Part shown: positions 15,199 to 51,759 of the stretch, piece by piece
How the letters are laid out: each line of letters begins with the position of its first letter
How positions within the stretch are numbered: position 1 is the first letter of the stretch
Origin: Polyangiales bacterium
GTDB taxonomy: Bacteria > Myxococcota_A > Polyangia > Polyangiales > Ga0077539
Length of the DNA stretch: 57,138 bases
NCBI GenBank assembly: GCA_046351535.1
Contig: JAXLYG010000023.1
Span: forward strand, 128,001 to 185,138
Direction: 5' to 3'
Translations under genes and position numbers: made by a program
The notes under the pieces: model-generated
The model's input: the letters and a program-made list of their open reading frames with translations, nothing else
Database searches by the model: none
What the model was told of the DNA's origin: nothing

Positions 15199-15303
15199 CA
15201 ACCCGGTTGTCTCAGAACGCCGCCCCGGCGTCATCGGAGTACGATCGCCGCGCGACGCGACGTTGCCCGAGGCGCGACGACGTCACCGCGAGGGAGCCCC
15301 ACC

Positions 15304-34155: not shown

Positions 34156-34191
34156 CGCGTCACGCGCTCTCTCGCAGGGGTCTCACCAGGG

Positions 34192-34431
34192 TCACGGTCG
34201 CCTCGCGCGAAGCCATCGCATCACGACGACGAGGGTCACGGCCACGAGCATCGCGGCCAGCGTGTCGACGCTCCCGATGATGCTCCGCGCGCGCAGCACG
34301 GTGTAGAGGTGCGCGGCGGTCGACGCGCCTGCGAGCAGCCACACGACCACCTCGTAGCGGGCGAGCGTGCGGTCCTCCTCCTCTTCGGGCGACTTTGGCT
34401 CCATGGGCTTCACGGGGAGGGTCGGGAGCAC
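34192..34431 (-). CDS. small hypothetical membrane protein (79 aa)
   Basis: Two hydrophobic stretches (VVVWLLAGASTAAHLYTVL; LAAMLVAVTLVVVM). Lies between the porin and kdpD-N genes. Coding status is uncertain. Confidence 0.3.
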   Translation of the reverse strand: MLPTLPVKPMEPKSPEEEEDRTLARYEVVVWLLAGASTAAHLYTVLRARSIIGSVDTLAAMLVAVTLVVVMRWLRARRP

Positions 34432-34549
34432 ACCGGGTGCCGTCGGCCACGACCGCGCGATTCGGGGCCTGCGCGCGTCGCGGTCGTGCGAATTGCACGA
34501 AGTCCCACGGCGGTGACCGTGCGCCGCCGCACGGCGATCTGGGAGCGGG

Positions 34550-35785: not shown

Positions 35786-35813
35786 CGGTGATCTCCGTGT
35801 TCGCGGTCGGCGG

Positions 35814-36398
35814 TCAGCGCCCCGCGCGGGCGTCGAGGTCGAGGTTGAGCGCGAGCACGTTCACGCGGGCCTCGCCGAAGAGCCCGAGCGTGCGACCTTC
35901 GGTGTGCTTCGCGACGAGCGCGCGCAGCGAGGCCTCGGACATCGCGCGGGCCCTCGCCACGCGAGGGACCTGCACCTCGGCCGCCGCGGGGGAGATGTGC
36001 GGATCGAGTCCGCTCGCGCTCTTCGTCACGAGGTCGACGGGGATCGTGCCCGTGACGCCCGTGGCGCGGAGCGCGGCGACGCGAGCCGAGACCTCGTCGG
36101 TGAGCGAGGGGTTGAGCGGCCCGTAGTTGCTGCCCGACGAGTACGTGACGCCCGTCGCGCCGTCGACCGTCGCGGCCGAGGGCCTCCCCCAGAAATACTC
36201 GGGGTGCGCCGACGGATCCGCGAAGGTCTGACCGATCAGCATCGAGCCGCGCACGCGGCCGTCGCGCGCGATCAGGCTCCCGTTGGCCTCGCGCGGAAAC
36301 GCGGCCTGCGCCACGCCCGTGACGAATGCGGGATACGCCGCGCAGCAGAGCGCGAGGAGGAACGCGGTCACCACCAGACAGGGACGAATGAGCTTCAT
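35814..36398 (-). CDS. kdpC: potassium-transporting ATPase subunit C
   Basis: 194 aa. N-terminal TM helix. Conserved KdpC blocks (SGSNYGPLNPSL, SASGLDPHISPAAA). Directly downstream of kdpB. Confidence 0.85.
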   Translation of the reverse strand: MKLIRPCLVVTAFLLALCCAAYPAFVTGVAQAAFPREANGSLIARDGRVRGSMLIGQTFADPSAHPEYFWGRPSAATVDGATGVTYSSGSNYGPLNPSLTDEVSARVAALRATGVTGTIPVDLVTKSASGLDPHISPAAAEVQVPRVARARAMSEASLRALVAKHTEGRTLGLFGEARVNVLALNLDLDARAGR

Positions 36399-36413
36399 CG
36401 AAACACCAACCTC

Positions 36414-38528
36414 TCAAGCCAGTCCGAGCGCGCCGACGACCACGTCGATGGCCTTGATCGCGACGAAGGGCGCGACGACGCCACCCGCGCCGTAGACCAC
36501 GAGGTTCCGCCGCAAGAGGGCCGCGGCGCCGAGGGGGCGATACGCGACGCCGCGCAGCGCCAGGGGGATCAGCGCCACGATCACGAGCGCGTTGAAGATC
36601 ACCGCCGAGAGGATCGCGCTCTGCGGCGAGCCGAGGCGCATCACGTTGAGCGCCCAGAAGTGCGACGAGTGCGCGTCGCCGCGCGTCGTCTGAAAGGCCA
36701 CGAGGCCCGTGAACATCGCGGGCAGGATCGAGAAGTACTTCGCGACGTCGTTGGAGACCGAGAAGGTCGTGAGCGCGCCGCGCGTCATCAGGAGCTGCTT
36801 GCCGATCTCGACGACCTCGATGAGCTTGGTCGGGTCGCTGTCGAGGTCGACCATGTTGCCGGCCTCCTTCGCGGCCTGCGTGCCGGTGTTCATCGCGACG
36901 CCCACGTCGGCGCGCGCGAGGGCCGGCGCGTCGTTGGTGCCGTCGCCCGTCATCGCGACGAGGCGCCCGCCCTCCTGCATCTTGTGGATGTAGGCCCGCA
37001 TGGCCTCGGGGGTGGCCTCGGCGAGGTAGTCGTCGACGCCCGCCTCGGCGGCGATCGACTTCGCGGTGAGGGGGTTGTCGCCCGTCACCATCACGGTCTT
37101 GATGCCCATCGCGCGGAGGCGTTCGAAGCGCTCGCGCATGCCGGGCTTCACCGTGTCTTTGAGGTAGACCACGCCGAGGAGGCGCGGGCCGTCGGCCACG
37201 ACGAGGGGCGTTCCGCCGACATTGGCGACGCGGTCGACGAGGCCCTGGAGGTCCGCGGGGATGTCGGCGTTGGCGCGTCCGCCGACGTGCGAGAGCACCG
37301 CGTCGCTGGCGCCCTTTCGAAGCACGCGGTCGCCCGCGTCGATGCCGCTCATGCGGGTGCGCGCGGTGAAGGGCACGAACACGCTGCCCGCAGGGAGCGA
37401 CGGCGTCACGCCCATGCGCTCGGCGAGCGCGACGATGCTCCGCCCCTCGGGGGTCTCATCGGGGAGCGACGAGAGCGCCGCCACCGCCGCGAGCTCGCGC
37501 ACCTCGACGCCCTTCACGGGGAGAAACTCCGCCGCCTGGCGGTTCCCGTAGGTGATGGTGCCGGTCTTGTCGAGCATGAGCACGTCGATGTCGCCCGCGG
37601 CCTCGACGGCGCGACCCGAGGTGGCGAGCACGTTGTGCTGCACGAGCCTGTCCATGCCCGCGATGCCGATGGCCGAGAGCAGGCCGCCGATGGTCGTGGG
37701 GATGAGGCACACGAGCAGCGCGACGAGGGCGCCCACGCCGAGCGATCCGCCGAAGAAGCGCGCGAGCGCGTCGAGCGTGACCGTCGCCACGAGGAAGATC
37801 AGCGTGAGGCCCGCGAGGAGGATCGTGAGGGCGATCTCGTTGGGCGTCTTCTGCCGCTCGGAGCCCTCGACGAGGGCGATCATCCGGTCGACGAAGCCGC
37901 CGCCGGGGTCCTGCATCACCTCGATCTTGAGCCAGTCGCTCGTGACGCGCGTGCCGCCGGTGACCGCGCTGCGATCGCCGCCGGCCTCGCGCACGACGGG
38001 TGCGCTCTCGCCCGTGATGGCGCTCTCGTCGACGGAGGCGATGCCCTCGATGATCTCTCCGTCGGCGGGGATGAGCCCTCCGGCGGCCACGTACACGACG
38101 TCGCCGCGCTTGAGGTCCGCGGCGCTCACCTCGCCGCCCGTCGTGGGGTCGGGGCCGGCCGCGAGCGGGGTCTCGTCGCCCGCGTGACGGATGCGCCGCG
38201 CGGTGGTGGTCGTGCGCATCTTGCGGAGCGTGGCGGCCTGGGCCTTTCCGCGTCCCTCGGCCATGGCCTCGGCGAAGTTGGCGAACAGCACCGTGAACCA
38301 CAGCCACGCGATGAGCTGCGCGTTGAAGCGCACGTCGACGTGGGCGCCGCGCGCGAGGTCGTAGACGAAGAGCGTCGTGACGAGGAGGCTCCCCACCTCG
38401 ACGACGAACATCACGGGGTTCTTCGCCATGACGCGGGGGTCGAGCTTTCGAAGCGCGTCGACGAGGGCGGAGCGGACGATCTTCGCGTCCCAGAGCGACG
38501 CGGAGCGGTGTACCGGATGGGTTGTCAT
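36414..38528 (-). CDS. kdpB: potassium-transporting P-type ATPase subunit B
   Basis: 704 aa. Phosphorylation motif DKTGTIT and hinge [13 protein letters not shown] (GDGxND). TM helices typical of KdpB. Confidence 0.9.
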
Positions 38529-38537
38529 GGGTGGTGC

Positions 38538-40304
38538 CTATGCGTGACCGAGCATGAAGTGCTCGACGATCGGACCGAGCGAGAGGGCCGGGAAGAAGGT
38601 CAGCGCGCCCACCACGACGACCACGCCGACGAAGAGCCCGACGAAGAGCGCGCCGTCGACGGGAAAGGTCCCGGGCCCCGCGGGCACGAGGCGCTTCTTC
38701 GCCATGTTCCCCGCGATGGCGAGGGCCGCGACGATGAGCGGAAAGCGCCCGACGAACATCCCGAGGGCGAGCGTGAGCGAGTAGAAGACCGGGTGCGCGT
38801 CGGAGTACGCCGTGAGCCCCGCGAAGGCGCTGCCGTTGTTGCCCGCCGCCGAGCTGAACGCGTAGAGCATCTCCGAGAGCCCGTGCGGGTGCGGGTGCCA
38901 CGCGGGGCCCGGCGCGCCCTGCGACGCGACGTTCAAGACGCCCGCGCGCCCCGCCTCGGTGAGCGCCGCGACCGCCGTCAGCCCGAGGATCGCGAGCGCC
39001 GACACGAGGATGTAGATCGACGCGAAGCGCATGTCGCGGCTGTCGATCTTCTTGCCGAGGTACTCGGGCGTACGGCCCACCATGAGGCCCGCGAGAAAGA
39101 CCGCGATGATCACGTACACGAGGGCGCCGTAGAGCCCCGCGCCGACGCCGCCGAAGACCACCTCGCCGAGCTGGATGTTGAGCATCGGGATGAGCCCGCC
39201 GAGGGGCGTGAAGCTGTCGTGCATCCCGTTGACCGCGCCGCACGACGCGTCGGTGGTGACCGCGGCGAACAGGGCCGTGTCGGCGATGCCGAAGCGCAGC
39301 TCCTTGCCCTCCATGTTGCCGCCGGGCGAGAGGGCGCTCGCGACCTGGTCGACGCCGAGGTGCGAGAGCAGGGGATTGCCCTGCTGTTCGAAGCGCGCGA
39401 GGAGGGCGATGCCCGCGATCGAGAGGATCGCCATCGCGACGAAGAGCGCGGCGCCGTGGCGTCGGTTCTTGAGCGTCTCGCCGAGCGTCACGCAGAGCGC
39501 CGCGGGGAGCGCGAAGATCGAGAAGACCTCGACGAGGTTCGTGAGCGGCGAGGGGTTCTCCCAGGGGTGCGCGCTGTTGGCGTTGAAGAAGCCGCCGCCG
39601 TTGGTGCCGAGCATCTTGATGGCCTCCTGCGAGGCCACGGGGCCGCGGACGATCGACTGCGCGGCGCCGTCGAGCGTGGTCCAGTGCGCGGCGCCCGCCC
39701 ACGTCTGCACGACGCCCTGCGAGACCAGGAACACCGCGTAGACGACGCTGAGCGGCACGAGCACGTAGAGGTGCGCGCGCACGAGGTCGACCCAGAAGTT
39801 GCCGAGCTTGTCGGTCTCGCGGCGCGCGATTCCGCGCAGGAGCGCGATGGCGACGCAGAGCCCGACGGCCGCGGAGAAGAAGTTCTGCGACGTGAGCGCG
39901 ACGGACTGCGACGCGAGGCTCATCGTCGTCTCGCCGCCGTAGCTCTGCCAGTTGGTGTTGGTCGTGAAGCTCGTCGCGGTGTTGAACGCCAGCCACGGCG
40001 CCACGGCCCCGAGGCGCGAGGGGTTCATCGGCAGCGCCGACTGCGCGCGCATCAACACGTAGGTGATGAGCTGCGTGAAGGCCGAGAAGCCGAGGAGCGC
40101 GAGGGCGTACTGCTTCCAGTCGTGCTCGTCGGCGGGGTCGATGCCCGCGGCGCGGTAGAGGGCGCGCTCGACGGGGCCAAAGAGGCGCGCGCCGAGGTGG
40201 CGCTCCCCCGCGAACACGCGGGCGATGTAGCGGCCGAGGGGCACCGCGACGGCGGCGAGGAGGGCGAAGTACACGGCGATGACGGCCCACATGCGCGGGG
40301 TCAT
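38538..40304 (-). CDS. kdpA: potassium-transporting ATPase subunit A
   Basis: 588 aa polytopic membrane protein with KdpA selectivity-region motifs (TNGGGFFNANSAHPWENP, TAAGNNGSAF). Sits between kdpF and kdpB. Confidence 0.9.
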   Translation of the reverse strand: MTPRMWAVIAVYFALLAAVAVPLGRYIARVFAGERHLGARLFGPVERALYRAAGIDPADEHDWKQYALALLGFSAFTQLITYVLMRAQSALPMNPSRLGAVAPWLAFNTATSFTTNTNWQSYGGETTMSLASQSVALTSQNFFSAAVGLCVAIALLRGIARRETDKLGNFWVDLVRAHLYVLVPLSVVYAVFLVSQGVVQTWAGAAHWTTLDGAAQSIVRGPVASQEAIKMLGTNGGGFFNANSAHPWENPSPLTNLVEVFSIFALPAALCVTLGETLKNRRHGAALFVAMAILSIAGIALLARFEQQGNPLLSHLGVDQVASALSPGGNMEGKELRFGIADTALFAAVTTDASCGAVNGMHDSFTPLGGLIPMLNIQLGEVVFGGVGAGLYGALVYVIIAVFLAGLMVGRTPEYLGKKIDSRDMRFASIYILVSALAILGLTAVAALTEAGRAGVLNVASQGAPGPAWHPHPHGLSEMLYAFSSAAGNNGSAFAGLTAYSDAHPVFYSLTLALGMFVGRFPLIVAALAIAGNMAKKRLVPAGPGTFPVDGALFVGLFVGVVVVVGALTFFPALSLGPIVEHFMLGHA

Positions 40305-40306
40305 GG

Positions 40307-40396
40307 TCAGAACCTCTCGGGTCGAGCGAGCACGTAGAACAGGTAGAGCGCGAGCCCCGCGGCGGTCGCGAGGCCGAGGATCACGTCGAGGCTCAT
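40307..40396 (-). CDS. kdpF: potassium-transporting ATPase subunit F (29 aa)
   Basis: MSLDVILGLATAAGLALYLFYVLARPERF matches the KdpF pattern (single TM, YL.Y.L..PE.F). It is the C-terminal part of a longer shadow ORF, immediately upstream of kdpA. Confidence 0.6.
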   Translation of the reverse strand: MSLDVILGLATAAGLALYLFYVLARPERF

Positions 40397-40401
40397 GGCG
40401 G

Positions 40402-40485
40402 TCACATCCGGTCGAAGAGCGTCACGAGGCCCGCGGTCGCCGCGTAGAGGCACGCCGTGAGCGCGAGGATCAGCAGGTCGGTCAT
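40402..40485 (-). CDS. additional 27-aa single-TM micro-protein upstream of kdpF
   Basis: Hand translation of the reverse strand gives ATG...TGA MTDLLILALTACLYAATAGLVTLFDRM. It ends 6 nt before kdpF. Below the ORF-track size cutoff. Confidence 0.3.
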   Translation of the reverse strand: MTDLLILALTACLYAATAGLVTLFDRM

Positions 40486-40698
40486 GCCCGCGCTCTCTCC
40501 ACGCCTCGTGCCGAGACCTGGAATCACAGCGATTTCTGCGATCTCGCGGGCGCCTCGTGCAGCGCTGCACGATCGCCGCGAGGGCCCCTCGTGCGGGGTC
40601 GCACGGCCTCACGCGGCACGGCGCCCGCGCGTCTGACGTCGCCGCGGACGAGAACGCGCGCCTCGCGAGGGCAGAGCGCGGGTACACTCGCGGCCCCC

Positions 40699-41943
40699 AT
40701 GGCACAGGTACGCGAACTCACGAACGCTCTCTGGAACGGCTCCCTCGACACGACGGACGCGCACCCCTTCACGGCCCTCGTGGGCCTCGAGGAGTACCGC
40801 CCCGGCCTCGCGTTCGTGTCGAGCCTGGCCAACGTCATCGCCGCGCGCACGGGCGAAGGCATCGTGCTCATCGACACGGGGAGCTTTCTCTCCGGCGAGA
40901 TGATCCGCGCGCAGCTCCGCGAGTGGTCGACGGACGCGATTCACACGGCGGTGTACACGCACGGCCACGTCGATCACGCGACGGGCATCGGCGCCTTCGA
41001 AGCCGAGGAGAGGCCCGCGAACGCTGCGCCCATGCGCGTCGTGGCGCACCGCGCGGTCAACGCCCGCTTCGCGCGGTACAAGCGCACCGCGGGGTACAAC
41101 GGCGCGATCAACGCGCGGCAGTTCCGCGCGGCGTTGGATTGGCCCACGGAGTACCGCGCGCCCGACGCGGTCTACGACGACCGCCTCGACCTCGACGTGG
41201 GCGGCGTGCGCTTCGAGCTCCACCACGCGCGCGGCGAGACCGACGACCACACGTGGCTCTGGATCCCCGAGCACCGCGCGGTCTGCACGGGCGACCTCTT
41301 CATCTGGGCCTCGCCCAACTGCGGCAATCCCCAGAAGGTGCAGCGCTTCGCGGGCGATCAGGCCGAGGCGCTCGACCGCATGGCCGCCCTCGACGGAGAG
41401 CTTCTCTTTCCCGGTCACGGCCCCGCGATCGAGGGCGCGGCGCGCGTGCGTGAGGCGCTCACGACGACGGCGGCGCTCTTGCGGTACCTCCACGACGAGA
41501 CCGTGGCGCGCATGAACGAGGGCGCCTCGCTCGACGCGATCATCGCGAGCGTCAAGGCCCCGAAGGAGCTGCTCGAACGCCCCTGGCTGCGGCCCGTGTA
41601 CGACGAGCCCGAGTTCGTGGTGCGCAACGTGTGGCGTCAGTACGGCGGCTGGTGGGACGGCGACGCCTCGCGGCTCAAGCCCGCGCGCGACGAGGCCCTC
41701 GCGAAGGAGATCGCGGCGCTCACGGGCGGCGCGTCGAAGCTCTCGTCGCGCGCAGCGGAGCTGTCGTCGCAGGGCGAGCACGCGCTCGCGTGTCACCTCG
41801 CGGAGTGGGCCGCGCGCGCCGCGCCCGAGGACGCAGACGTCGCCGCGACGCGGTCGGAGATCTACGCGCGCCGCGCGGAGTTCGAGACGAGCCTCATGGC
41901 GAAGGGTGTGTACTTCGACGCTTCGAACACGAAGCCGCGGTAG
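40699..41943 (+). CDS. alkyl/aryl-sulfatase-like MBL-fold hydrolase (SdsA1/BDS1-like core, no SCP2 tail)
   Basis: ATG at 40699 (MAQVRELTNALWNGS...). MBL motif YTHGHVDHATG, then ETDDHTWLWIPEHRAVCTGDLF and the dimerisation region typical of alkyl sulfatases. 414 aa. Confidence 0.6.
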   Translation: MAQVRELTNALWNGSLDTTDAHPFTALVGLEEYRPGLAFVSSLANVIAARTGEGIVLIDTGSFLSGEMIRAQLREWSTDAIHTAVYTHGHVDHATGIGAFEAEERPANAAPMRVVAHRAVNARFARYKRTAGYNGAINARQFRAALDWPTEYRAPDAVYDDRLDLDVGGVRFELHHARGETDDHTWLWIPEHRAVCTGDLFIWASPNCGNPQKVQRFAGDQAEALDRMAALDGELLFPGHGPAIEGAARVREALTTTAALLRYLHDETVARMNEGASLDAIIASVKAPKELLERPWLRPVYDEPEFVVRNVWRQYGGWWDGDASRLKPARDEALAKEIAALTGGASKLSSRAAELSSQGEHALACHLAEWAARAAPEDADVAATRSEIYARRAEFETSLMAKGVYFDASNTKPR

Positions 41944-42987
41944 TCACGCGGTCTGAGCGCGGGTCATGGGGAGGCCGAGTCGGCCCACGGCCGCGGGCTC
42001 CATGAACACGCGGATCGCGGAGATCTCACCGAAGGCGTCGAGCTCGATGACGTGCACGCTGTGAGCGTGGAGCGTCTTCGGGTCGGCGCGGTCGGGCGCG
42101 TAGAGCGCCAAGGAGGGAGCCCCGTTCACCGAAGGGCCGTCGATCATGTCGAAGGGGACCTTCATCGCGAAGACGAAGCCCGAGAGGAAGCGCTCCACGG
42201 CCTCGCGACCGGCGTACCACGCGGGCGACGGAGGCATCGCGAGCGTCGCGTCGTCGCGCAGCGTCGAGGCGAGGAGCGTCGCGTCACCCGTTCTCCACGC
42301 GCGGGCGTAGCGGCTGAGCACGTCGGTGTCGGAGGGCTTCGGCGCGCGGGCGGACCTTCGCCACGAGGGCGCGCGCTCGTCGAGCGTGGCGCGGGCGCGC
42401 TGCGCGGCGCTGTTCACCGCGGCGACCGTGATGTCGAGCGCGTCGGCCACCTCGGCGGCGCTCCACCCGGCGACTTCGAGCAGGAGCAGGGCCGCGCGCT
42501 GCGTGCCGGGGAGGAGGTGAATCGCCGCGAGGAAGGCGATGGCGACGCTCTGCCTACGCGTGAGTCCCGCCTCGGGGCACTCGCCCGCGTCGAGGCTGCC
42601 CTCACACCATGCGGCATCGGGGAGCGCTTCGAGCCACACGGGGTCGAGGAGCGGATCGGTCGGCGGCGACGATGGATCGGCGGGGCCGCTGTCGTCGAGC
42701 GAGGGGTAGCGACGCGCGGGACGGTCGCCGAGGTGATCGAGGCACACCCTCGTCGCGATGGCGTAGAGCCACGACCGAAACGACGATCGCCCTTCGAACG
42801 ATCCGACGTGGCGCCACGCGCGGAGGAGCGCCTCCTGCACGGCGTCTTCGGCCTCACCGGCCGCGCCGAGCATGCGGTAGCAGTGCGCGAGGAGCCGCTT
42901 GCGGTGGGGGTTCACGAGCGCGTCGAAGGCGCCGCGGTCCCCAGCTCGCACGGCCTCGATGAGAGACGCGTCCACGCCCTGTTCCAT
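41944..42987 (-). CDS. ECF sigma-70 factor with C-terminal SnoaL-like extension (SigJ/ECF41-56-like)
   Basis: Region 2 (AEDAVQEALLRAWR, FRSWLYAIATRVCLDHL), region 4 (RQSVAIAFLAAIHLLPGTQRAALLLLEVAGWSAAEVADAL), and a 130-aa C-terminal extension. Confidence 0.8.
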   Translation of the reverse strand: MEQGVDASLIEAVRAGDRGAFDALVNPHRKRLLAHCYRMLGAAGEAEDAVQEALLRAWRHVGSFEGRSSFRSWLYAIATRVCLDHLGDRPARRYPSLDDSGPADPSSPPTDPLLDPVWLEALPDAAWCEGSLDAGECPEAGLTRRQSVAIAFLAAIHLLPGTQRAALLLLEVAGWSAAEVADALDITVAAVNSAAQRARATLDERAPSWRRSARAPKPSDTDVLSRYARAWRTGDATLLASTLRDDATLAMPPSPAWYAGREAVERFLSGFVFAMKVPFDMIDGPSVNGAPSLALYAPDRADPKTLHAHSVHVIELDAFGEISAIRVFMEPAAVGRLGLPMTRAQTA

Positions 42988-43140
42988 GGCTCACCGCGAT
43001 ACCACGAAAACGTGCCGCGGGAGGCATTCGTACGGGTCGTGACGATTCACCGATGAGTCTCCGCGGGCGGCGCGCCGGTCTCTGTGAATGTGAGGGCGAC
43101 GCGACGGACGCGACGCCGCTCCTACGGAGGTCCAACGGTC

Positions 43141-43524
43141 ATGGCGATTCCCGTCACTGCGCTCTTCGGTGCGATCCACGGTGTGCTCAACGTCGCGCTC
43201 GCGATCGGCGTCACGAGGGCCCGCGCCCAGTCGAACATCTTCCTCGGTACGGGCGACTCCGACGCGCTCCTGCTCGCCTCGCGGCGCCACGGGAACAACG
43301 CCGAGTACGTGCCCCTCGCCCTGCTGCTCCTCCTCGTGGCAGAGGTCGCGGGCGGCGGCGCGACGGTGCTCTACGCCCTCGGCGGCGCGCTCACGCTCGG
43401 GCGCATCCTGCACGCGATCGGCGTCGGCTCGAAGCCCTCTCCGCTGCGCGCGATCGGCGCGGTGCTGACGTGGCTCACCATCGTCGGCGCGGGCATCTAC
43501 GGACTCATCGCCTCGATGCACTGA
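43141..43524 (+). CDS. MAPEG-family small membrane protein
   Basis: 127 aa from ATG 43141. Three or four TM helices. RRHGNNAEYVPLALLLL resembles the MAPEG motif. Confidence 0.55.
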   Translation: MAIPVTALFGAIHGVLNVALAIGVTRARAQSNIFLGTGDSDALLLASRRHGNNAEYVPLALLLLLVAEVAGGGATVLYALGGALTLGRILHAIGVGSKPSPLRAIGAVLTWLTIVGAGIYGLIASMH

Positions 43525-43543
43525 CACGAGAGGACCACGCACC

Positions 43544-43894
43544 ATGACGAGCTTCGGACGCAACATGAAGGTCGATGTCGACAACGCGCAGCGCGACGCC
43601 GTGCGGCGCTTCTGGGAGGAGGGCCTCGGCTGCAAGCGCCGCAGCCCCAAGGAGCAGTTCGACCTCTTCGACTTCGAAGACGGCGGCTGCCTCGGCGTCT
43701 TCTACGTCGAGGGCGGCGCGCTCGAACCCGCGCTCTGGGCGAAGACCGTGTGGCTCGAGTTCATCGTCGACGACCCCGCGGTCACCGCCGAACGGCTCCT
43801 GTCGCTCGGCGGAACGAGCGTGAAGGGCATGACGGAACACCCGTACGTCATGGCCCCCGGCGGCCCCATCTTCAGGCTCGCCCCCCGGGGCTGA
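43544..43894 (+). CDS. small hypothetical protein (possibly VOC/glyoxalase-like)
   Basis: 116-aa ORF with balanced composition. No confident domain. Confidence 0.4.
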   Translation: MTSFGRNMKVDVDNAQRDAVRRFWEEGLGCKRRSPKEQFDLFDFEDGGCLGVFYVEGGALEPALWAKTVWLEFIVDDPAVTAERLLSLGGTSVKGMTEHPYVMAPGGPIFRLAPRG

Positions 43895-43970
43895 CCCCCG
43901 CTCCCCGCGTCGCGGACCGTGGAGTGACTCGCAACGACCGCGCGCGTCCCGTACGATCCGCGCCCTCGTC

Positions 43971-45503
43971 ATGGCACCCCCTTCACTTCGGTCTCTCACT
44001 GCGGCGCTGCTCCTCGCGGCGTGTGGCACGTCGGAGCCCGTCGCCCCGCGCGACGCGGGCAACGACCTCGCCGACTCGCCCCCCACGTCTGATGTCACCG
44101 CCGACGCGGCCGACGTCACCGACGTCACCGACATCACCGATGTCCCGACGCGACGATTGCCCGTGATTGAAGGGCTCTCCGAGCTGCCCGACAGGAACCC
44201 CGACCCCCGCATCGTCGAGGTGAACCTCACCTCGGCGCCCGCGGTCGCGCACTGGCGCGAGGGCGTCGACTCCGACGTGCTCGCCTACAACGGGATGATC
44301 CCCGGGCCCATGATCCACGCGCGCGTCGGCGACCGGGTGATCGTCCACTTTCGCAACGAGATGGAGGACGACACCACCGTGCACTGGCACGGCCTGCGGA
44401 TCTCGGACCTGATGGACGGCTCGCCCGCCCTTCAGGAGCCCGTGCGACCGGGCGGTGAGTTCACCTACGACTTCGTCGTCCCCGACGCGGCGACCTTCTG
44501 GTACCACTCGCACATCGGCACGGCCGAGCAGATCGAGCGGGGGCTCTACGGCGCGCTCGTCGTCCACGAGGCCGATCCGCCCGCGGTCGATCGCGAGCGC
44601 ATCTTCGTGCTCGACGACGTGAAGCTCGCGTCGAGCGGACAGATCGCGCCGGCCCTCACGAGCGGCCCCGACATCGGCCGCGGACGCTACGGCAACGTGC
44701 TCCTCACCAACGGCCAGGCGACGCCCGTCACGGCCACGGCCGCCCGCAACGCCGTCGAGCGCTGGCGCATCGTGAGCGCAGCCAACGCGCGCTCCCTCCG
44801 CGTGCGCGTCGACGGCGCCGTGTGGAAGGTCGTCGGCACCGACGGGGGGCTTCTCCCGACGCCCTATGAAACAAGCGAGATCGTGGTGGGGCCCGGCCAG
44901 CGCTACGACCTCGAGGTGCGCATGGAAGACGGCTCCGCGAGCGCCGCCGAGCTCGTCACCACGGTGCTCACGGCGCTCTCTGACGGCGGCATCGCGGACC
45001 GCGACTACACCCTCGCCTCGGTCACCCTCGACGGAGAGGTCGCGCCCAGGCCCGCGTGGGTCGCGCCCGCGGTGACGCTCCCCAACGCGGCGCCCGCGAT
45101 GGCGCAGGCGCTCAACTGGGCGCTCAGCGGTCGCGTCGTCGACGCCGGCGTGGAGTTCACCATCAACGGCGTCGCGGGCCTCGGCCACGGGAGTCACACG
45201 GCCACGCACGACTACATCGAGCGGGTGCCGCAGAACGCGCCCGTGCGCATCACGCTGCGGAGCGACGTGAGCCCCGAGCACCCCTTTCACCTCCACGGGC
45301 AGTTCTTTCAGATCGTGGCGCCGCAGTCGCGCGCGCGCCTCGAGCCGGGCTTGAAAGACGTGGTGCTGGTGCGCGGCGCCGAGCCCGTCACGATCCTCTC
45401 GTACTTCGAAAACCCCGGGCGCTGGATGGTCCACTGCCACATCTCGGAGCACGCCGAGCGCGGGATGATGAGCGAGATCATGGTGCTCCCCCCGTCGCCA
45501 TGA
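43971..45503 (+). CDS. multicopper oxidase (laccase/CueO-like) lipoprotein
   Basis: Lipobox LLLAACGTS. DVTDVTDITDV repeat linker. Copper ligand motifs HWHG, HSH, HPFHLHG and HCHISEHAERGMM. Confidence 0.85.
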   Translation: MAPPSLRSLTAALLLAACGTSEPVAPRDAGNDLADSPPTSDVTADAADVTDVTDITDVPTRRLPVIEGLSELPDRNPDPRIVEVNLTSAPAVAHWREGVDSDVLAYNGMIPGPMIHARVGDRVIVHFRNEMEDDTTVHWHGLRISDLMDGSPALQEPVRPGGEFTYDFVVPDAATFWYHSHIGTAEQIERGLYGALVVHEADPPAVDRERIFVLDDVKLASSGQIAPALTSGPDIGRGRYGNVLLTNGQATPVTATAARNAVERWRIVSAANARSLRVRVDGAVWKVVGTDGGLLPTPYETSEIVVGPGQRYDLEVRMEDGSASAAELVTTVLTALSDGGIADRDYTLASVTLDGEVAPRPAWVAPAVTLPNAAPAMAQALNWALSGRVVDAGVEFTINGVAGLGHGSHTATHDYIERVPQNAPVRITLRSDVSPEHPFHLHGQFFQIVAPQSRARLEPGLKDVVLVRGAEPVTILSYFENPGRWMVHCHISEHAERGMMSEIMVLPPSP

Positions 45504-46222
45504 GCATCGACCGAAGCATCGATGACGTGCTCCGTGACGCGGGCACGCCCGAGCGCGCCGAGCAGGAGAGGCGCTACCTCAAGAGCGAGCTCACCCACTA
45601 CGGCGTGCCCGTTCCCGCGATCCGTCGCGCGGTGAAGGGCGCCCTCGCGGAGGCGCCCGACCTCACGCGGGTGGAGCTCGTGCGCGCCGTCGCGGCGCTG
45701 TGGTCTCAGCCCGTGCACGAGCGCCGCTCGGCGGCGATCGAGCTGCTGGTGCAGCGGGTGAGGCTCCTCGAAGACGGCGACCTCGCGCTCGTCGAGCGGC
45801 TCTTGCGAGACTCGAAGACGTGGGCCTACGTCGACGTGCTCTCGGCGCACGTGGCGGGCGCGCTCGTCGAGCGCTCGCCGAAGCTCAACGCGACGCTCGA
45901 CCGCTGGGCCACGGACGAGAACTTCTGGCTCCGTCGCTCGGCGATGCTCGCGCTCCTCGTGCCGCTTCGAAAGGGCGGCGGAGACTTCGACCGCTTCGGT
46001 CGCTACGCCGACGCGATGCTCGACGAGAAGGAGTTCTTCATTCGCAAGGCCATCGGGTGGGTGCTCCGCGAGGTGGCGAAGAAGCGCCCCGCGCTCGTCG
46101 CGGCGTGGATGCTCCCGCGGGCGAAGCGGGCGTCGGGCCTGACCTTCCGCGAGGCGACGCGCGCCCTCCCCGACGCGCAGCGCGCGAAGCTGGAGCGGGC
46201 GAGAGACGCGAAATCCCGGTAG
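45500..46222 (+). CDS. DNA alkylation repair (AlkD-like HEAT-repeat) protein
   Basis: ATG overlaps the oxidase stop (ATGA). ERRYLKSEL..YGVPVP and WAYVDVLS...FWLRRSAMLALL...FIRKAIGWVLRE are AlkC/AlkD-family blocks. 240 aa. Confidence 0.6.
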   Translation: MSIDRSIDDVLRDAGTPERAEQERRYLKSELTHYGVPVPAIRRAVKGALAEAPDLTRVELVRAVAALWSQPVHERRSAAIELLVQRVRLLEDGDLALVERLLRDSKTWAYVDVLSAHVAGALVERSPKLNATLDRWATDENFWLRRSAMLALLVPLRKGGGDFDRFGRYADAMLDEKEFFIRKAIGWVLREVAKKRPALVAAWMLPRAKRASGLTFREATRALPDAQRAKLERARDAKSR

Positions 46223-46354
46223 ACGGGGGTTCGGCGCACCCCGGCGCGCGGCGCTCGCGAGGGGGCGAAGGCGCTCTGCGCTGGATCGGCGACGCGATTC
46301 GTCCGAGGATGCGCCCGCGACCCGCGAGCGGAGCGGAACCGGGAGTGTGCGCAC

Positions 46355-47872
46355 GTGCGATCGGCGGAGACCGTCATCATCGGAGCTGGCGCAGCCGGGT
46401 CGGTGATCGCCGCACGCATGACCGAGCGCAGCGACCACGAGGTGCTCCTCCTCGAAGCGGGCGTCGACTATCCCTCGCCCGACGACCTCCCGAGCGACCT
46501 CCGCGACGGGACGCGCAACTCCACGAAGCTCCACGACTGGGGCTACAAGCACCGCGTGAACTCCGTGGCGGCGCTGCGCTTTCCGCTGCCGCGGGGGCGC
46601 GTCGTCGGGGGGTCGTCGGCGGTCAACACGTGCATCGCGCTGCGCGGCGTTCCCTCGGACTTCGACGAGTGGGCCGCGCTCGGCCTCGACGACTGGTCGT
46701 GGGCGCGGTGCCTCCCCGCGTTCAAGCGCCTCGAGCGCGACCTCGACCACCGCAACGAATGGCACGGCGCCGACGGCCCGATCCCCATTCGCCGTCACAC
46801 GCGCGACGAGCTCGTGCCGTGGCAGGCCGCGTTCCTCGACGCGTGCGAGCGCATGGGCCTCCCGCGAACGGACGATTCGAATCACCCCGAGGCCACGGGC
46901 GCCGGCGCGCACCCGATGAACAAGATCGACGGAGAGCGCATGGGCGCCGCGCGCTGCTACCTCACGCCCGAGGTCCGCGCGAGGCCCAACCTGCGCATCC
47001 AGCCCGGCGCGCTCGTGCGCAGGGTCATCGCGCGCGGAGGCCGCGTGACGGGCGTCGAGTTCGAATCGCTCGGCGTGGTGCGCATGGTGGCCGCGAAGCG
47101 CGTGGTGCTCTGCGGCGGCGCCATCGCGACGCCGGGCGTGCTCCTGCGGTCGGGCATCGGACCGAAGGCGCGCGTCGAGGCCATCGGCGTGACGCCCCTG
47201 CTCGACGTCGCGAACGTGGGCGCGCGCCTCCTCGATCACCCCGGCGCGGCCTTCTTTCTGTGGCCGAAGCGCGGCGTGTGCGACGTGAAGCACCCGCTCA
47301 TCCAGACGGCGTATCGCTTTCGATCGGAGCGCGGCGCGCACCTCAACGACCTCCAGGTGCAGCCGGGGTCGGCGGTGGTGCTCCCCTTCGCGTCGCTGCC
47401 CCTCGTCTCGATCATGTGTCACGTCGGCAAGCCGCGCGGACGCGGCTCGATCACCTACGCCACCGCGCGCGCCGACGAGCGCCCGATGATCGAGTCGCGG
47501 CTGCTCGATGACCCCTACGACCGCGCCCTCGCCGTCGAGGCCCTCTCGATGGCGTGGGCGATCTCGCAGACCGCGCCGATGAAGGACATGGCGAAGGTCG
47601 TGTGGCCTCCCCCGCGCGCGGTGGCCGACCGGGCCTCGCTCGACGGATGGATCCGGCGCGTGTGCGACTCGGGCTATCACGCGTGCGGGACGGTTCCGAT
47701 GGGGCGACCGGGCGAAGGCGCCGTCGACGGACGCGGGCGCTTCGACGGCATCGAGGGGCTCATCGTCGCCGACGCGAGCCTCATGCCCACGGTGCCCACG
47801 GGGAACATCCACCTCCCCTCGCTGATGATCGGCGAGCGCTTCGGCGAGTGGCTCCGCGACGGCGCGCTCTGA
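46355..47872 (+). CDS. GMC-family FAD oxidoreductase (choline dehydrogenase-like)
   Basis: GTG start. Rossmann motif IIGAGAAGSVIAARMTE. GGSSAVN. C-terminal HACGTVPMG active-site region (His) and GLIVADASLMP. Confidence 0.8.
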   Translation: MRSAETVIIGAGAAGSVIAARMTERSDHEVLLLEAGVDYPSPDDLPSDLRDGTRNSTKLHDWGYKHRVNSVAALRFPLPRGRVVGGSSAVNTCIALRGVPSDFDEWAALGLDDWSWARCLPAFKRLERDLDHRNEWHGADGPIPIRRHTRDELVPWQAAFLDACERMGLPRTDDSNHPEATGAGAHPMNKIDGERMGAARCYLTPEVRARPNLRIQPGALVRRVIARGGRVTGVEFESLGVVRMVAAKRVVLCGGAIATPGVLLRSGIGPKARVEAIGVTPLLDVANVGARLLDHPGAAFFLWPKRGVCDVKHPLIQTAYRFRSERGAHLNDLQVQPGSAVVLPFASLPLVSIMCHVGKPRGRGSITYATARADERPMIESRLLDDPYDRALAVEALSMAWAISQTAPMKDMAKVVWPPPRAVADRASLDGWIRRVCDSGYHACGTVPMGRPGEGAVDGRGRFDGIEGLIVADASLMPTVPTGNIHLPSLMIGERFGEWLRDGAL

Positions 47873-49642
47873 TCAGATGCAGTAGCTCCCCGAGCACCGC
47901 GCGGGCGCGACGCAGGTCCCGGCGCAGCAGAGCTGTCCTCGCGCGCCGCACGCGCGGCAGTAGCCCGCGGAGCAGGCGTTCCCCGCGGAGCAGGAGCTGC
48001 CCGGGCAGCAGGTCTGGTTCGCGAGCCCGCACACGCGGCAGAAGCCTGCGGAGCAGTAGTTCCCCGCGGAGCAAGAGCTCCCGGGGCAGCAGGTCTGGTT
48101 GGTGAGCCCGCACACGCGGCAGAAGCCCGCAGAGCAGTAGTTCCCCGCGGAGCAGGAGCTCCCCGGACAGCAGGTCTGGTTGGTGAGCCCGCACACGCGA
48201 CAGAAGCCCGCGGAGCAGTAGTTCCCTGCCGAGCAGGAGCTCCCGGGGCAGCAGGTCTGGTTGGTGAGCCCGCACACGCGGCAGTAGCCCGCGGAGCAGT
48301 AGTTCCCCGCCTCGCAGACGCTGCCGGGGCAGCACACGGCGCTCGTCGATCCGCACGCGCGGCAGTAGCCCGCGGAGCAGTAGTTCCCTGCGCCGCAGAC
48401 GCTGCCGGGGCAGCAAAGCTGGCTGGTGGTCCCGCACGCGCGACAGAGGCCGCCGGAGCAGTAGCTCCCCGCCGCGCAGACGCTCCCGGTGCAACACGTC
48501 TGGCCCGCGGAGCCGCAGGTGGTGCCCGTCACGCAGGTGCCCGAGAGGCAGCGGAGTCCCGTTCCGCAGATCGTGCCCGAGCAGCACGCGGCGCCGAGCG
48601 TCCCGCATGCCGTGGTCATCGTCACGCAGAGGCCCGACGCGCACATGAGCCCCGCGCCGCAGAGCGTCCCCGCGCAGCACGCGGCGCCGAGCGTCCCGCA
48701 CGTGGTCGACGTCGTGGAGCACGTCCCCGACGAGCAGGTGAGGCCCGCGTTGCAGACCGATCCGCCGCAGCACGCCTGCCCCGCCATGCCGCACGGAGGC
48801 GGCGTGCACGCGCCCGCGGCGCACGTGAGCCCCGCGTTGCAGACGCTCCCCGAGCAGCACGGTTGACCGCTCGCGCCGCAGGTCACCGTCGACATGATGC
48901 AGCTCCCCGCGGAGCACTCGAGGCCCGTGTCGCAGAGGCGTCCGCCGCAGCACGTCTGACCGAGCATCCCGCACGCGGTCGAGGTGATGCAGCTCCCCGA
49001 GGAGCACTCGAGGCCCATGTCGCAGAGGCGTCCGCCGCAGCAGGTCTGACCGCGCATGCCGCACACGGTCGACGAGGCCACGCAGCGGTTGTCGACGCAC
49101 GACGCGCCCGAGCCGCAGACGTTGCCCGCGCAGCACACCTGATCGACCATGCCGCAGGGCGGCGCCGCGCAGGTCCCCGCGGTGCAGAGGAGGTCGCGCT
49201 CGCAGCTATCGCCGCGGCAGCAGAGGGCGCCCATCCCCCCGCACGCGACGCACATCCCCATGCGGCACACGCCGCCCGAGTCGCACACGTCGCCGCAGCA
49301 CGGCGCGCCCACGGGTCCGCACGCGACCATCGCGTCCATCGCGTCCATCGCGGGCGCGGTGTCGATGCTCACATCGGGAGGGCTCACCGCGTCGATCGAC
49401 GCGTCGAGGTCGACATCGGCCGCGGGCGCGTCGTCGCCCAGATCCGAGACGTCGTCGGCGTCGGCGGCGTCGGCGGGGTCAGCGTCCGCGGTCAGCGCGT
49501 CGTCGGCGTCTTTCGCGTCGGGGCGATCGTCGTAGATCGTGAGGGCGTCGTCGAAGTCGACGGGGGGCGGGACGAACACCTCCGCGGCGCGCGCGCAGGC
49601 GAGCGTCGAGAAGCAGAGCAGCACCCACGCGATACGACGCAT
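47873..49642 (-). CDS. secreted cysteine-rich tandem-repeat protein (Myxococcus-type Cys-rich repeat, about 19 modules)
   Basis: Signal peptide from ATG 49642 (MRRIAWVLLCFSTLACARA). Acidic linker. Then repeated 24-27-aa modules C-G-x2-G-Q-x-C-C-x-G-x2-C-x-x-G-x-x-C-x-x-G-x-C. Three or four consecutive modules are identical (RVCGLTNQTCCPGSSCSAGNYCSAGFC), reflecting about 81-bp near-identical DNA repeats in 47900..48320. Confidence 0.7.
   Translation of the reverse strand: MRRIAWVLLCFSTLACARAAEVFVPPPVDFDDALTIYDDRPDAKDADDALTADADPADAADADDVSDLGDDAPAADVDLDASIDAVSPPDVSIDTAPAMDAMDAMVACGPVGAPCCGDVCDSGGVCRMGMCVACGGMGALCCRGDSCERDLLCTAGTCAAPPCGMVDQVCCAGNVCGSGASCVDNRCVASSTVCGMRGQTCCGGRLCDMGLECSSGSCITSTACGMLGQTCCGGRLCDTGLECSAGSCIMSTVTCGASGQPCCSGSVCNAGLTCAAGACTPPPCGMAGQACCGGSVCNAGLTCSSGTCSTTSTTCGTLGAACCAGTLCGAGLMCASGLCVTMTTACGTLGAACCSGTICGTGLRCLSGTCVTGTTCGSAGQTCCTGSVCAAGSYCSGGLCRACGTTSQLCCPGSVCGAGNYCSAGYCRACGSTSAVCCPGSVCEAGNYCSAGYCRVCGLTNQTCCPGSSCSAGNYCSAGFCRVCGLTNQTCCPGSSCSAGNYCSAGFCRVCGLTNQTCCPGSSCSAGNYCSAGFCRVCGLANQTCCPGSSCSAGNACSAGYCRACGARGQLCCAGTCVAPARCSGSYCI
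47900..48520. repeat. coding tandem repeats, about 81-bp units, several near-identical
   Basis: Repeated gcaggagctcccggggcagcaggtctggttggtgagcccgcacacgcggcagaagcc... units. They correspond to identical 27-aa protein modules. Confidence 0.75.
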
Positions 49643-49921
49643 TCGAGCGCGATTCGAGCACCTCACGACGGCCCGTGTCCAGCGGCGCGCAGCGGAACGA
49701 CCCGCGGGTCATCCCCCGACGCCGCCCGCCCCGTTGCCCTGAGAGTGACGCCCCTCGATCTGGCGGGTCGAGACGCGCGACCGTCGCGCCCATTCGTGCT
49801 CGGGACTCACCCCGCGAGCGACGGCGAGAATCCCTGAACACCCGTCGTTCAAGGGCAAATGCGAAGGTCGATCGACGCGCTTCCCCTCGCGGAGGGCGAG
49901 GTGATAGCGGTCAGTGACCCC

Positions 49922-51547
49922 ATGCAACGACACGTCATGCTCCTCGCGGGCGCGCTCCTCGGCGCGTGTGACGCCGGCACGCAGCAGCCGACCTACAAGC
50001 CCGATGTCGACGCGTCGGTGCCCGTCGATGCGCCCGCGAGCGTCGACGTGCGACCCGCGAGCGACGTGAGCGCCACGGTCGATCGCCCCGTGGCGGTCGA
50101 TCGACCGGCGGGCGACGTGACGACGCAGTCCGACGCGAGCGGCGACGTGAACAGCCGCTACGACGTGACGCCCGCGAGCGACGCGCCGACCTGCGACGCG
50201 GGCGGCGCGTGCGCCACGCGGCCCGAGGGGTGTGTCGCCACGGAGGTCTGCTACGACGGCCTCGACAACAACTGCGACACGCGCGTCGACGAGGGGTGTC
50301 CGTGCATCCCCGGCGCGGTGCAGCGGTGCTCGCTCGCGCCGCCCGGACACCGCGGCGTCGGAACGTGCAGCGACGGCAACCAGACCTGCGTGGGCACCGG
50401 AGAGTTCGGGTCGTGGAGCGCCTGCGTGGGCGCGATCTCTCCGTCGGCCGAGACGTGTGACGGCGCCGACAACGACTGCGACGGATGCCCCGACGACGGC
50501 CTCTGCTGCCGCCCCGCGGGGACGTGTCCTTCGGCGGGCGACCCGCGCGTGCCGACGGGGAGGCCCTTCGCGGCGTACTCGCTCCGCGGCTCGACCTTCT
50601 TCCCCGGGACCGCACGCGCGTGGCGCTGGCGCGTGGTGGGCGGCCCCTGCGATCAGCTCCTCTACGCGACGCGCTCGCGCGTGTCGTACCGCGTCGACGG
50701 CGCGAGCGCAGACCCGCGCGAGTCGAGCGCCGAGACGCTCTCGTTCACGCCGACGCTCTCGGGCGACTACACCGTCACGCTCACGGTCACCGCGGCCGAC
50801 GGGTCGACCTTCGAATGCACCTTCGTGGTCTCGGTGCGCGCCCCGGGACTCCGCGTCGAGCTCTGCTGGGACCGCACCGGCAACCCCCGCGCGACCGATG
50901 GAACCGCGGGCGCCGACGTCGACCTCTGGGTGCGCCGCCCCGGCGCCGGCGGACCGTGGGCCTTCACCGTCTTCGACCCCGACGAGACCTGCGGCGCCTA
51001 CAACTGCTTCAACCGCGACGCCGACATCCCGTCGATCTATCGCTCCGACCGCCCCGACTGGGGATACGCGCCCTCGACGGGCGGCGCGTGCCGCACGCCC
51101 GACGTCGGCGGGGTGTGCAAGAACCCGCGCCTCGACCTCGACAACAACGGCCTCAACGACGCGACGCACAGCGACACCGACCCCGAGAACATCAACGTCG
51201 ACAGCCCCCGCGACGGAGACTCGTTCCGCGTCGGCGCCTACTACTGGCGGGGCTCCGTGGCGACGCAGCCGATGGTGAACATCTACTGCGGCGGCGCGCT
51301 CCGCGCGACCTTCGGCGGCGCGACGGTCGGCGGCACGCTCTACGGCTCGGCGCCCATCTCGGGCTTCACCACGGGCCGCGGCGGCTTCGACACGGCGTCG
51401 TCGTTCTGGCGCGTCGCCGACGTCACGATGCGCGACGCGGGCAACGCGTGCGACGTCACGCCGCTCGTGCTGAACGACGGCAGCCGCGCGGCCTGCGTGC
51501 AGACCGACACCGACCGCAGCTACAACGGCCGGTGCCAGCGTCGCTGA
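49922..51547 (+). CDS. lipoprotein with MopE-like CxDxxDNDCD putative metal-binding motifs and a PKD/Ig-like region
   Basis: ATG at 49922 (MQRHVMLLAGALLGACDAG, a lipobox). VDxP repeats. CYDGLDNNCDTRVDEGC and CDGADNDCDGCPDDG. SFTPTLSGDYTVTLTVTAADGSTFECTFVVSV is PKD-like. Confidence 0.55.
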   Translation: MQRHVMLLAGALLGACDAGTQQPTYKPDVDASVPVDAPASVDVRPASDVSATVDRPVAVDRPAGDVTTQSDASGDVNSRYDVTPASDAPTCDAGGACATRPEGCVATEVCYDGLDNNCDTRVDEGCPCIPGAVQRCSLAPPGHRGVGTCSDGNQTCVGTGEFGSWSACVGAISPSAETCDGADNDCDGCPDDGLCCRPAGTCPSAGDPRVPTGRPFAAYSLRGSTFFPGTARAWRWRVVGGPCDQLLYATRSRVSYRVDGASADPRESSAETLSFTPTLSGDYTVTLTVTAADGSTFECTFVVSVRAPGLRVELCWDRTGNPRATDGTAGADVDLWVRRPGAGGPWAFTVFDPDETCGAYNCFNRDADIPSIYRSDRPDWGYAPSTGGACRTPDVGGVCKNPRLDLDNNGLNDATHSDTDPENINVDSPRDGDSFRVGAYYWRGSVATQPMVNIYCGGALRATFGGATVGGTLYGSAPISGFTTGRGGFDTASSFWRVADVTMRDAGNACDVTPLVLNDGSRAACVQTDTDRSYNGRCQRR

Positions 51548-51759
51548 TCAGACGCGACACGCGCTCACGGCCACGAGCGGGCGCGCTCCTCGACGACGCC
51601 CCATCGCAGCGCACGTTCCGCCTTGAAAATAGGGCTTTCGTGCGGTCCGTTGTGCGGCCCCCTCGCGTCGCTGCCCCCGACGACTGCGCGGCGGGGCGCG
51701 CTTCGTCGCGCGACGCGGCCGCCATTGACGCAGGCGCGGCGCCGGGGGAGCGTCGGCCC

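Follow-up and report, generated by a model that had tools for sequence, protein, structure and literature searches.

A tandem array of seventeen six-cysteine modules in a putative lipoprotein of a Polyangiales bacterium, and the widespread bacterial module from which it is built

We analysed a window of 57,138 nucleotides from a Polyangiales bacterium (GenBank assembly GCA_046351535.1, contig JAXLYG010000023.1), in which an earlier note had picked out a gene for a secreted protein of about 19 cysteine-rich modules. The gene is a single open reading frame (ORF) on the minus strand; according to the ORF list and its translation, a GTG start gives 597 amino acids (aa) and an ATG at 49642 gives 589, and residues are numbered here from this ATG. 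The GC content at third codon positions (GC3) is 0.93, with 72% GC for the window as a whole, and the 105 cysteines of the protein make up 17.6% of its residues. Table 1 lists the parts of the gene together with its neighbours.

Table 1. Parts of the cysteine-rich gene and neighbouring genes, in window coordinates
Feature	Position	Strand	Basis or description
Whole ORF (stop codon 47873-47875)	47873..49666	-	ORF list and translation, GC3, dN/dS against the orthologue in L003
Signal peptide with lipobox-like end (MRRIAWVLLCFSTLAC followed by ARAA), candidate lipidated Cys16	49583..49642	-	Read from the sequence
Acidic Asp/Ala/Pro-rich low-complexity tether, 87 aa	49322..49582	-	Composition: 26 Asp, pI 4.05, 0 Cys
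Modules 1-9, 'GL-type', six Cys	48518..49321	-	Module table, identity matrix
Modules 10-16, seven of 27 aa (81 bp), 2-aa linkers RA/RV	47951..48517	-	Tandem Repeats Finder, module table, pLDDT >90
Modules 13-16, CGL[TA]NQTCC..., concerted-evolution block	47951..48274	-	Within- versus between-genome nucleotide distances, three genomes
Module 17, terminal, divergent, C-x6-CC-x3-C-x5-C-x4-C-I-stop	47876..47950	-	Conserved in L003 and L004
MopE/PKD-like divergent neighbour	49859-51547	+	562 aa, lipoprotein-like, 29 Cys; PF11617 E = 3.6e-7
GMC oxidoreductase	46355-47872	+	TIGR03970 (mycofactocin dehydrogenase MftG) 314 bits, below cutoff 387
Lipoprotein-like multicopper oxidase	43971-45503	+	Three Cu-oxidase domains; Asp/Thr-rich tether after lipobox

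At the N-terminus (MRRIAWVLLCFSTLAC) a positive n-region precedes a hydrophobic core and a lipobox-like LAC, a signal of the same design as in the other lipoprotein-like ORFs of the window. Judged by eye, it fits the relaxed lipobox [..][LIV..][AGS]C of PROSITE PS51257. An alternative signal peptidase I site can be read between ARA and AE.

From residue 108 to the penultimate residue the protein is made of 17 consecutive units with exactly six cysteines each, 102 in total. The expression C-x6-CC-x3/4-C-x5-C-x4-C matches 17 times in a row here, and at most once in any of 2000 shuffles of the array. The signal-like N-terminus bears out the secretion proposed in the earlier note; likewise, the cysteine pattern given there, CG..GQ.CC.G..C..G..C..G.C, is correct, and the three consecutive modules described as identical at the protein level are modules 13-15 (window 48032-48274). 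The description is therefore right in the main. Other figures have to be revised: we count 17 modules where about 19 had been given, their period of 26-31 aa replaces one of 24-27, and of the six or seven cysteines per module six is right while seven is never seen in the 17 modules. The 81-bp DNA repeat holds for modules 10-16, to which this period is restricted (Tandem Repeats Finder, TRF: 47946-48503, 6.9 copies, 85% matches, score 692), and fails for modules 1-9, where DNA periods run from 78 to 93 bp and TRF reports periods of 90 and 93 bp. In modules 1-9 the linkers are 2-6 aa long and, from module 2 on, rich in Thr, Ser and Pro; local duplicates occur in this part (pairs 4/5 and 8/9, at 88% and 76% aa identity). 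Most of modules 10-16 carry aromatic residues at positions 19 and 24, the exceptions being Ala19 in module 16 and Leu24 in module 10. No further copy of the module was found elsewhere in the window.

The module recurs far beyond this locus. A word-indexed search yielded 47 homologues with identities of up to 37%; in none of them (0/47) does a Pfam domain fall on the module. A three-module profile run against 1.84 billion cluster representatives gave 2257 matches at E<=1e-3, 723 at E<=1e-10 and 56 at E<=1e-30. The commonest unit in the first 47 homologues reads x-A-C-G-[AG]-x-G-Q-[PA]-C-C-[AS]-G-x-x-C-x-x-G-L-x-C-x-x-G-x-C; across the family the most frequent spacing is C-x6-CC-x4-C-x5-C-x4-C, with a modal linker of 2 aa. 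Outside the cysteines, three Gly positions and one Gln are conserved above about 70% in these 47 sequences and one Leu at 55%, and aromatics stand at about 1%. Arrays in 185 family proteins range from 2 to 19 modules.

Among 70 multidomain members scanned, 14 carry a Peptidase_S8 subtilase domain, and other partners include GH5 cellulase, CHAP, trypsin-like, FG-GAP, RCC1, NHL and other propellers, Stig1 and fibrinogen-C. In the subtilase fusions the array is placed after the catalytic domain and before a C-terminal domain of at most about 100 aa, and in one further protein (P0053) between a Dickkopf-like domain and a cellulase. Such placement looks like the behaviour of extracellular accessory, stalk or binding modules.

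Searches of Pfam and NCBIfam with the whole protein returned nothing beyond spurious matches to collagen-like Scl adhesins, which we set aside as due to the Gly-rich composition. The earlier note had used a Myxococcus-type label and proposed a TIGR02232-type search; when this was run, neither TIGR02232 nor Pfam DUF4215 matched the whole protein (E<=1) or any of 89 three-module family segments (E<=10), and the label falls. TIGR04201 (Myxo_Cys_RPT, a 22-position repeat) matched one of the 89 segments, that of the query, over 12 residues at 13.2 bits against a cutoff of 25 (E = 0.073). Among PDB sequences neither the protein nor the three-module profile nor a one-module profile had a significant match, the best being a CREMP eggshell protein (E = 0.26), Dkk4 and an atracotoxin (E = 0.083). 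DUF7107, considered as a Pfam home after weak matches in 28 of the 89 segments, was rejected when in P0053 the DUF7107/Dickkopf_N match was found to fall on the Dickkopf-like domain at the N-terminus, apart from the module. No description of the module turned up when the literature was searched for its motif and for cysteine-rich repeats of myxobacteria. By these searches the module appears as a widespread bacterial disulfide-rich extracellular domain lacking a curated description in Pfam and NCBIfam. It is compact, with about 25 residues and three predicted disulfides, occurs in more than 2000 protein clusters of environmental bacteria and is often found on secreted subtilases and glycosidases. 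With a name for it, many secreted proteins now listed as 'hypothetical' would be better annotated, and to protein engineers it may offer a naturally concatenable, hyper-stable scaffold.

Two other observations concern related or superficially similar repeats. In one subfamily (P0004 and P0037, at loci L001 and L002) an N-terminal lipoprotein domain (CDRPATQIVLRVDSD...) is followed by acidic repeats, the module array and a Stig1-like tail, and the gene adjoins an M16 peptidase gene pair and a PEGA/CarboxypepD_reg-like gene in two unrelated assemblies. A CxAGxYCPGG-type cysteine repeat in an alphaproteobacterial metagenome-assembled genome (MAG) from yak colon (L005, positions ~7400-9200), found through the word 'EAGNYC', is unrelated to the module; it may be of the type that TIGR04201 weakly matches.

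AlphaFold2 modelled modules 10-12, from an 89-row alignment of three-module segments, with a mean predicted local distance difference test score (pLDDT) of 92.5 and a predicted template modelling score (pTM) of 0.71. In this model the DSSP assignment of each module has three beta-bridge residues followed by a four-residue hairpin. A model of the whole array from a 68-row alignment repeats the pattern in nearly every module, with pLDDT >90 for modules 10-17 and below 50 in the part of the tether that was included. Its pTM is 0.44, as expected for a chain in which the arrangement of the modules relative to one another is ill-defined. The best Foldseek matches were the double-knot toxin DkTx, ProTx-I (TM-score 0.63, target-normalised; 2.2 A over 31 columns), ProTx-II and hanatoxin, none with E <0.1.

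The disulfide wiring was read from natural variants. A one-module hidden Markov model (HMM) collected 1108 module instances from the 185 family proteins, and cysteine losses were counted in those instances with at most two gapped positions, 724 of which have all six cysteines. The first and third cysteines are lost together in 18 modules of nine proteins, and the second and fifth in seven modules of three proteins; these are the only recurrent four-cysteine forms. From this paired loss we infer the disulfides C1-C3 and C2-C5 and, by elimination, C4-C6. Together the fold model and the paired losses uphold the modular, disulfide-rich nature that the earlier note had ascribed to the protein. The disulfide knot that it had proposed to check for is not supported: the 1-3, 2-5, 4-6 connectivity proposed here is not that of an inhibitor cystine knot (ICK).

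Relatives of the locus were sought in a scan of one genome per species. A syntenic locus lies in 'MAG: Myxococcota bacterium isolate MAG_1' (L003), with 92.5% DNA identity over window positions 39886-51586. The orthologue there agrees in the number (17) and order of its modules and keeps 102 of 102 module cysteines; over the array the two proteins are 94.8% identical with dN/dS 0.135. On these comparisons the gene is real, well conserved and under constraint. A more distant Polyangiales MAG (L004) holds the 3' part of the orthologue with nine modules visible, its contig beginning inside the array. In the L004 contig (1-746) the assembly breaks within the repeats, and a single Tyr-type module precedes four CGLTNQTCC modules, where the window has three Tyr-type modules; module number may therefore differ in relatives more distant than L003. 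A scan of JGI metagenomes for close orthologues found none further, the best match having 42% identity. In a family member from another assembly (P0037, GCA_963853115.1, L002 6001-7578) two modules are followed by Arg-rich nonsense that resembles an off-frame translation of further cysteine modules; its array probably contains an internal frameshift, whether by sequencing error or because it is a pseudogene.

The comparison of copy number among strains suggested in the earlier note thus gives 17 modules both here and in L003. Since the count is the same in two independent assemblies and exact DNA repeats within the gene reach at most 48 nt, the assembly collapse feared for this locus is unlikely, and the count of 17 is probably correct. 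Nor are the DNA repeats 'nearly perfect': between the protein-identical modules 13-15, 5-6 of 81 nt differ (93-94% identity), and each of these differences is a synonymous one at a third position. As every difference among them is silent, their peptide is under strong purifying selection.

We find two modes of evolution along the array. For modules 1-12 and 17, comparison of positional orthologues between the window and L003 gives 2-7 differing nt and comparison of paralogues 13-26, the pattern of ordinary divergent evolution, to which we ascribe these modules. In modules 13-16 the pattern is reversed: within a genome, 5-6 nt separate the copies in modules 13-15 of the window and 5-10 nt those in modules 14-16 of L003, but positional orthologues are 9-15 nt apart. 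Over these four modules the orthologues diverge by 14.2%, over the other 13 by 6.3% (Fisher p = 1.5e-5). Over twelve CGLTNQTCC-type modules from three genomes the mean distance is 8.7 nt within genomes and 12.7 nt between them, and the peptide CGLTNQTCCPGSSCSAGNYCSAGFCR recurs in all three. These distances point to concerted evolution, by gene conversion or unequal exchange, in modules 13-16 only and with copy number unchanged. The gene conversion that had been suggested for the repeats is therefore supported locally, in modules 13-16, and not for the remainder of the array. Recent expansion, offered with it, does not fit, because synonymous divergence among modules 13-15 (5-6 changes at about 19 synonymous sites) is as large as that between the genomes (proportion of synonymous differences, pS, 0.22), both of which have 17 copies. 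The locus is a clean small case of concerted evolution confined to 4 of 17 repeats while copy number stays fixed.

The gene converges on that of the GMC oxidoreductase, the two stop codons abutting at 47872/47873 with zero intergenic bases, and diverges across 192 bp from the MopE/PKD-like gene. Neither a sigma-70-like promoter nor an intrinsic terminator was found around it. The product of the divergent gene has the MopE 'putative metal-binding motif' and weak PKD-like matches, and the gene is conserved beside the cysteine-rich gene in L003. No other mycofactocin genes were seen in the window. Further off are a complete kdpA, kdpB, kdpC operon followed downstream by a KdpD sensor-domain/Usp protein (32989-40304, minus strand) and a HAMP/PAS histidine kinase (28853-30688). 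A lipobox (L-x-[AG]-C), a tether rich in Asp, Ala, Pro and Thr and a folded domain follow one another in the products of many ORFs (13690-15234, 21984-23591, 24935-26983, 43971-45503 and 49859-51547), the folded domains including a GH5 cellulase, DUF3604 and a multicopper oxidase, among others. This arrangement appears to be a house style for the exported proteins of the organism.

How might such a protein work? We favour, at somewhat better than even chances, a surface or matrix stalk or adhesin built from the module. The lipoprotein-type signal would export the protein and probably anchor it in lipid, and the acidic disordered tether would present a chain of 17 rigid three-disulfide units. 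Each module would fold independently into a small beta-hairpin unit stapled by C1-C3, C2-C5 and C4-C6, and the linkers of 2-6 residues would join the units into an elongated chain resistant to proteases and heat, as disulfide-rich mini-proteins typically are. In other bacteria the array within secreted enzymes would most plausibly serve as a stalk, a spacer or an avidity-binding element; here the protein has no catalytic domain, so that the array itself would be the working part.

In modules 10-16 the Leu18 and small residue 19 usual in the family are replaced by Asn/Ser-Tyr, and position 24 is Phe or Tyr. If, as the DSSP string implies, strands 18-21 and 24-27 are joined by a two-residue turn, residues 19 and 24 would share an exposed face opposite two cysteines. 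Seven near-identical faces, conserved in three genomes, could then bind a repetitive ligand by avidity, a polysaccharide being the most plausible, and purifying selection with local gene conversion would hold the C-terminal modules uniform. A glycan as the specific ligand is a tentative suggestion which we consider on the whole unlikely. A likeness to CBM1/hevein-like carbohydrate-binding modules was considered from a resemblance in motif and the aromatics of modules 10-16; having no tool support, it was kept as a ligand hypothesis only.

Several points weigh against the stalk or adhesin. Position -3 of the lipobox is a non-canonical Thr, and lipidation was judged by eye. The argument for an aromatic face depends on a hairpin geometry deduced from a DSSP string. 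Residues conserved across the family are limited to Cys, Gly, one Gln and one Leu, so that nothing marks a shared ligand site, which for the family as a whole favours a scaffold over a binding module. The neighbouring genes, on other strands or unrelated, lend no functional support, and we infer the function of the protein from its sequence and a model.

A different view takes the array as a polyprotein precursor, cut between modules to release disulfide-rich peptides of 25-31 aa with toxin-like, antimicrobial or signalling roles. We regard this as improbable. The analogy on which it draws is that of progranulin, processed to granulins, and of some plant and venom precursors that yield several knottins. 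The module has the framework, the proposed connectivity and the CGxxGQPCC motif of framework-XXXII conotoxins (see below), and a three-module segment just reaches the gathering score of the Toxin_12 family. An Arg-Ala or Arg-Val after each of modules 10-16 could be cut by a trypsin-like protease, protease fusions are frequent in the family, and myxobacteria are predators. However, the linkers in modules 10-16 measure just 2 aa, and across the family linker residues vary freely, with no conserved motif for cleavage. Other members carry the array internally, flanked by domains. Near the gene there is no protease, exporter or immunity gene dedicated to such a product, and a lipid anchor with an acidic tether suits a surface protein that is retained. 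Similarly doubtful, to the same degree, is the idea that conotoxin-like units are strung together as in progranulin, or displayed multivalently, and that a predatory myxobacterium would turn them against prey cells or membranes; if true, the fold would either be shared from ancient times or have passed horizontally between bacteria and animal venoms.

Binding of metal by thiols, which the earlier note had raised, or redox buffering in the manner of a metallothionein and perhaps linked to copper through the neighbouring genes, seems to us less probable again. The cysteine content of the protein and the presence of a multicopper oxidase, a GMC oxidoreductase and a MopE-motif protein nearby speak for it. 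A metallothionein-like binder would, however, be cytosolic, with cysteines clustered as metal thiolates and no disulfides, whereas this protein has an export signal, exactly six cysteines per module that in natural variants disappear in set pairs, as disulfide partners should, and a confidently predicted beta-hairpin. Of His, Met and Asp, none is a conserved residue of the module. The neighbours are on the opposite strand or separately transcribed, and the downstream gene differs in L004.

We give very little weight to an artefact, be it a repeat number altered by collapse or expansion in assembly, or an ORF that is spurious in GC-rich DNA. Tandem 81-bp repeats are prone to suspicion, and both the L004 contig break and the P0037 frameshift fall inside the array; against this, an independent MAG agrees in the number and order of modules at a dN/dS well below one, and the copies can be told apart by sequence (identity <=94%) with exact repeats as short as noted above. 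Least likely of all is that the module belongs to a known and already catalogued Myxococcus cysteine-rich repeat family (TIGR02232/DUF4215 or TIGR04201), for which the Myxococcota host and the weak TIGR04201 match would speak, but the first has no match and the second stays below its cutoff in a single segment.

Returning to the stalk or adhesin of small disulfide-stapled units, one of the closest known systems is conotoxin framework XXXII, of the type of Mo3964 (PDB 2MW7, 'disulfide-stabilised beta-sandwich'). Framework XXXII is defined as C-CC-C-C-C, and Mo3964 has the connectivity 1-3, 2-5, 4-6 (PMC9741281). All 17 modules share this framework, and the wiring proposed from cysteine co-loss is identical to that of Mo3964. 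Toxins of the framework also carry the module motif CGxxGQPCC, for example Qc32.1 (SSCGYLGQPCC...CHGDLEC). Eight of them score 11.9-15.4 bits with the module HMM, compared with a maximum of 8.1 for 200 shuffled controls, although at a search space of PDB size this corresponds to E 0.14-1.8. The resemblance thus extends to four levels (framework, motif, wiring and backbone); homology is not demonstrated. In contrast to the Conus venom precursor, which has an M-superfamily signal, a propeptide and a single peptide, the bacterial protein has a lipoprotein-type signal and a 17-module array.

Progranulin, too, is a secreted tandem array of small disulfide-laddered modules. The spacing of granulin, C-x5-6-C-x5-CC-x8-CC..., is unlike that of the module. 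Pfam Granulin (PF00396) matched none of the 89 family segments at E<=10, and granulin was absent from the results of the PDB sequence and fold searches. The mini-granulin fold has the connectivity I-III, II-V, IV-VI, a C-terminal beta-hairpin and the spacing C-x6-C-x5-CC-x7-CC (PMC12270677); it is like the module in ordinal connectivity and hairpin and differs in cysteine spacing. That the module agrees with a rare class of conotoxins in framework, wiring and motif, and with the mini-granulin in connectivity, raises the question of whether the fold is ancient or convergent.

The ICK spider toxins resemble the module in size, in having three disulfides and in their C-terminal hairpin. Their framework is C-C-CC-C-C and their wiring 1-4, 2-5, 3-6, as opposed to C-CC-C-C-C and the proposed 1-3, 2-5, 4-6 of the module, and we rule out identity with a classical knottin on both grounds. 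Pfam Toxin_12 matches 6 of the 89 segments and not the whole protein; its one score above the gathering value (21.9 bits against 21, E = 2.7e-4) sums three stretches of a three-module segment, and its register is shifted so that it borrows the last cysteine of the preceding module. The Dickkopf/colipase fold and Pfam DUF7107 all stayed below significance, and these have five disulfides in about 50-90 aa and occur in eukaryotic signalling or cofactor proteins.

In its overall architecture the protein agrees with the secreted cysteine-rich repeat proteins (SCREPs), in which a signal peptide precedes a 'pure domain repeat' of disulfide-rich units and which are reported to include many uncharacterised bacterial sequences (PMC6262176): it appears to be secreted and consists of tandem cysteine-rich repeats. 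SCREP is a description and not a family or a function, and the characterised members are mostly venom or inhibitor proteins of two to four domains. The protein studied here thus falls into a known class of secreted cysteine-rich repeat proteins, and the module from which it is built is newly described.

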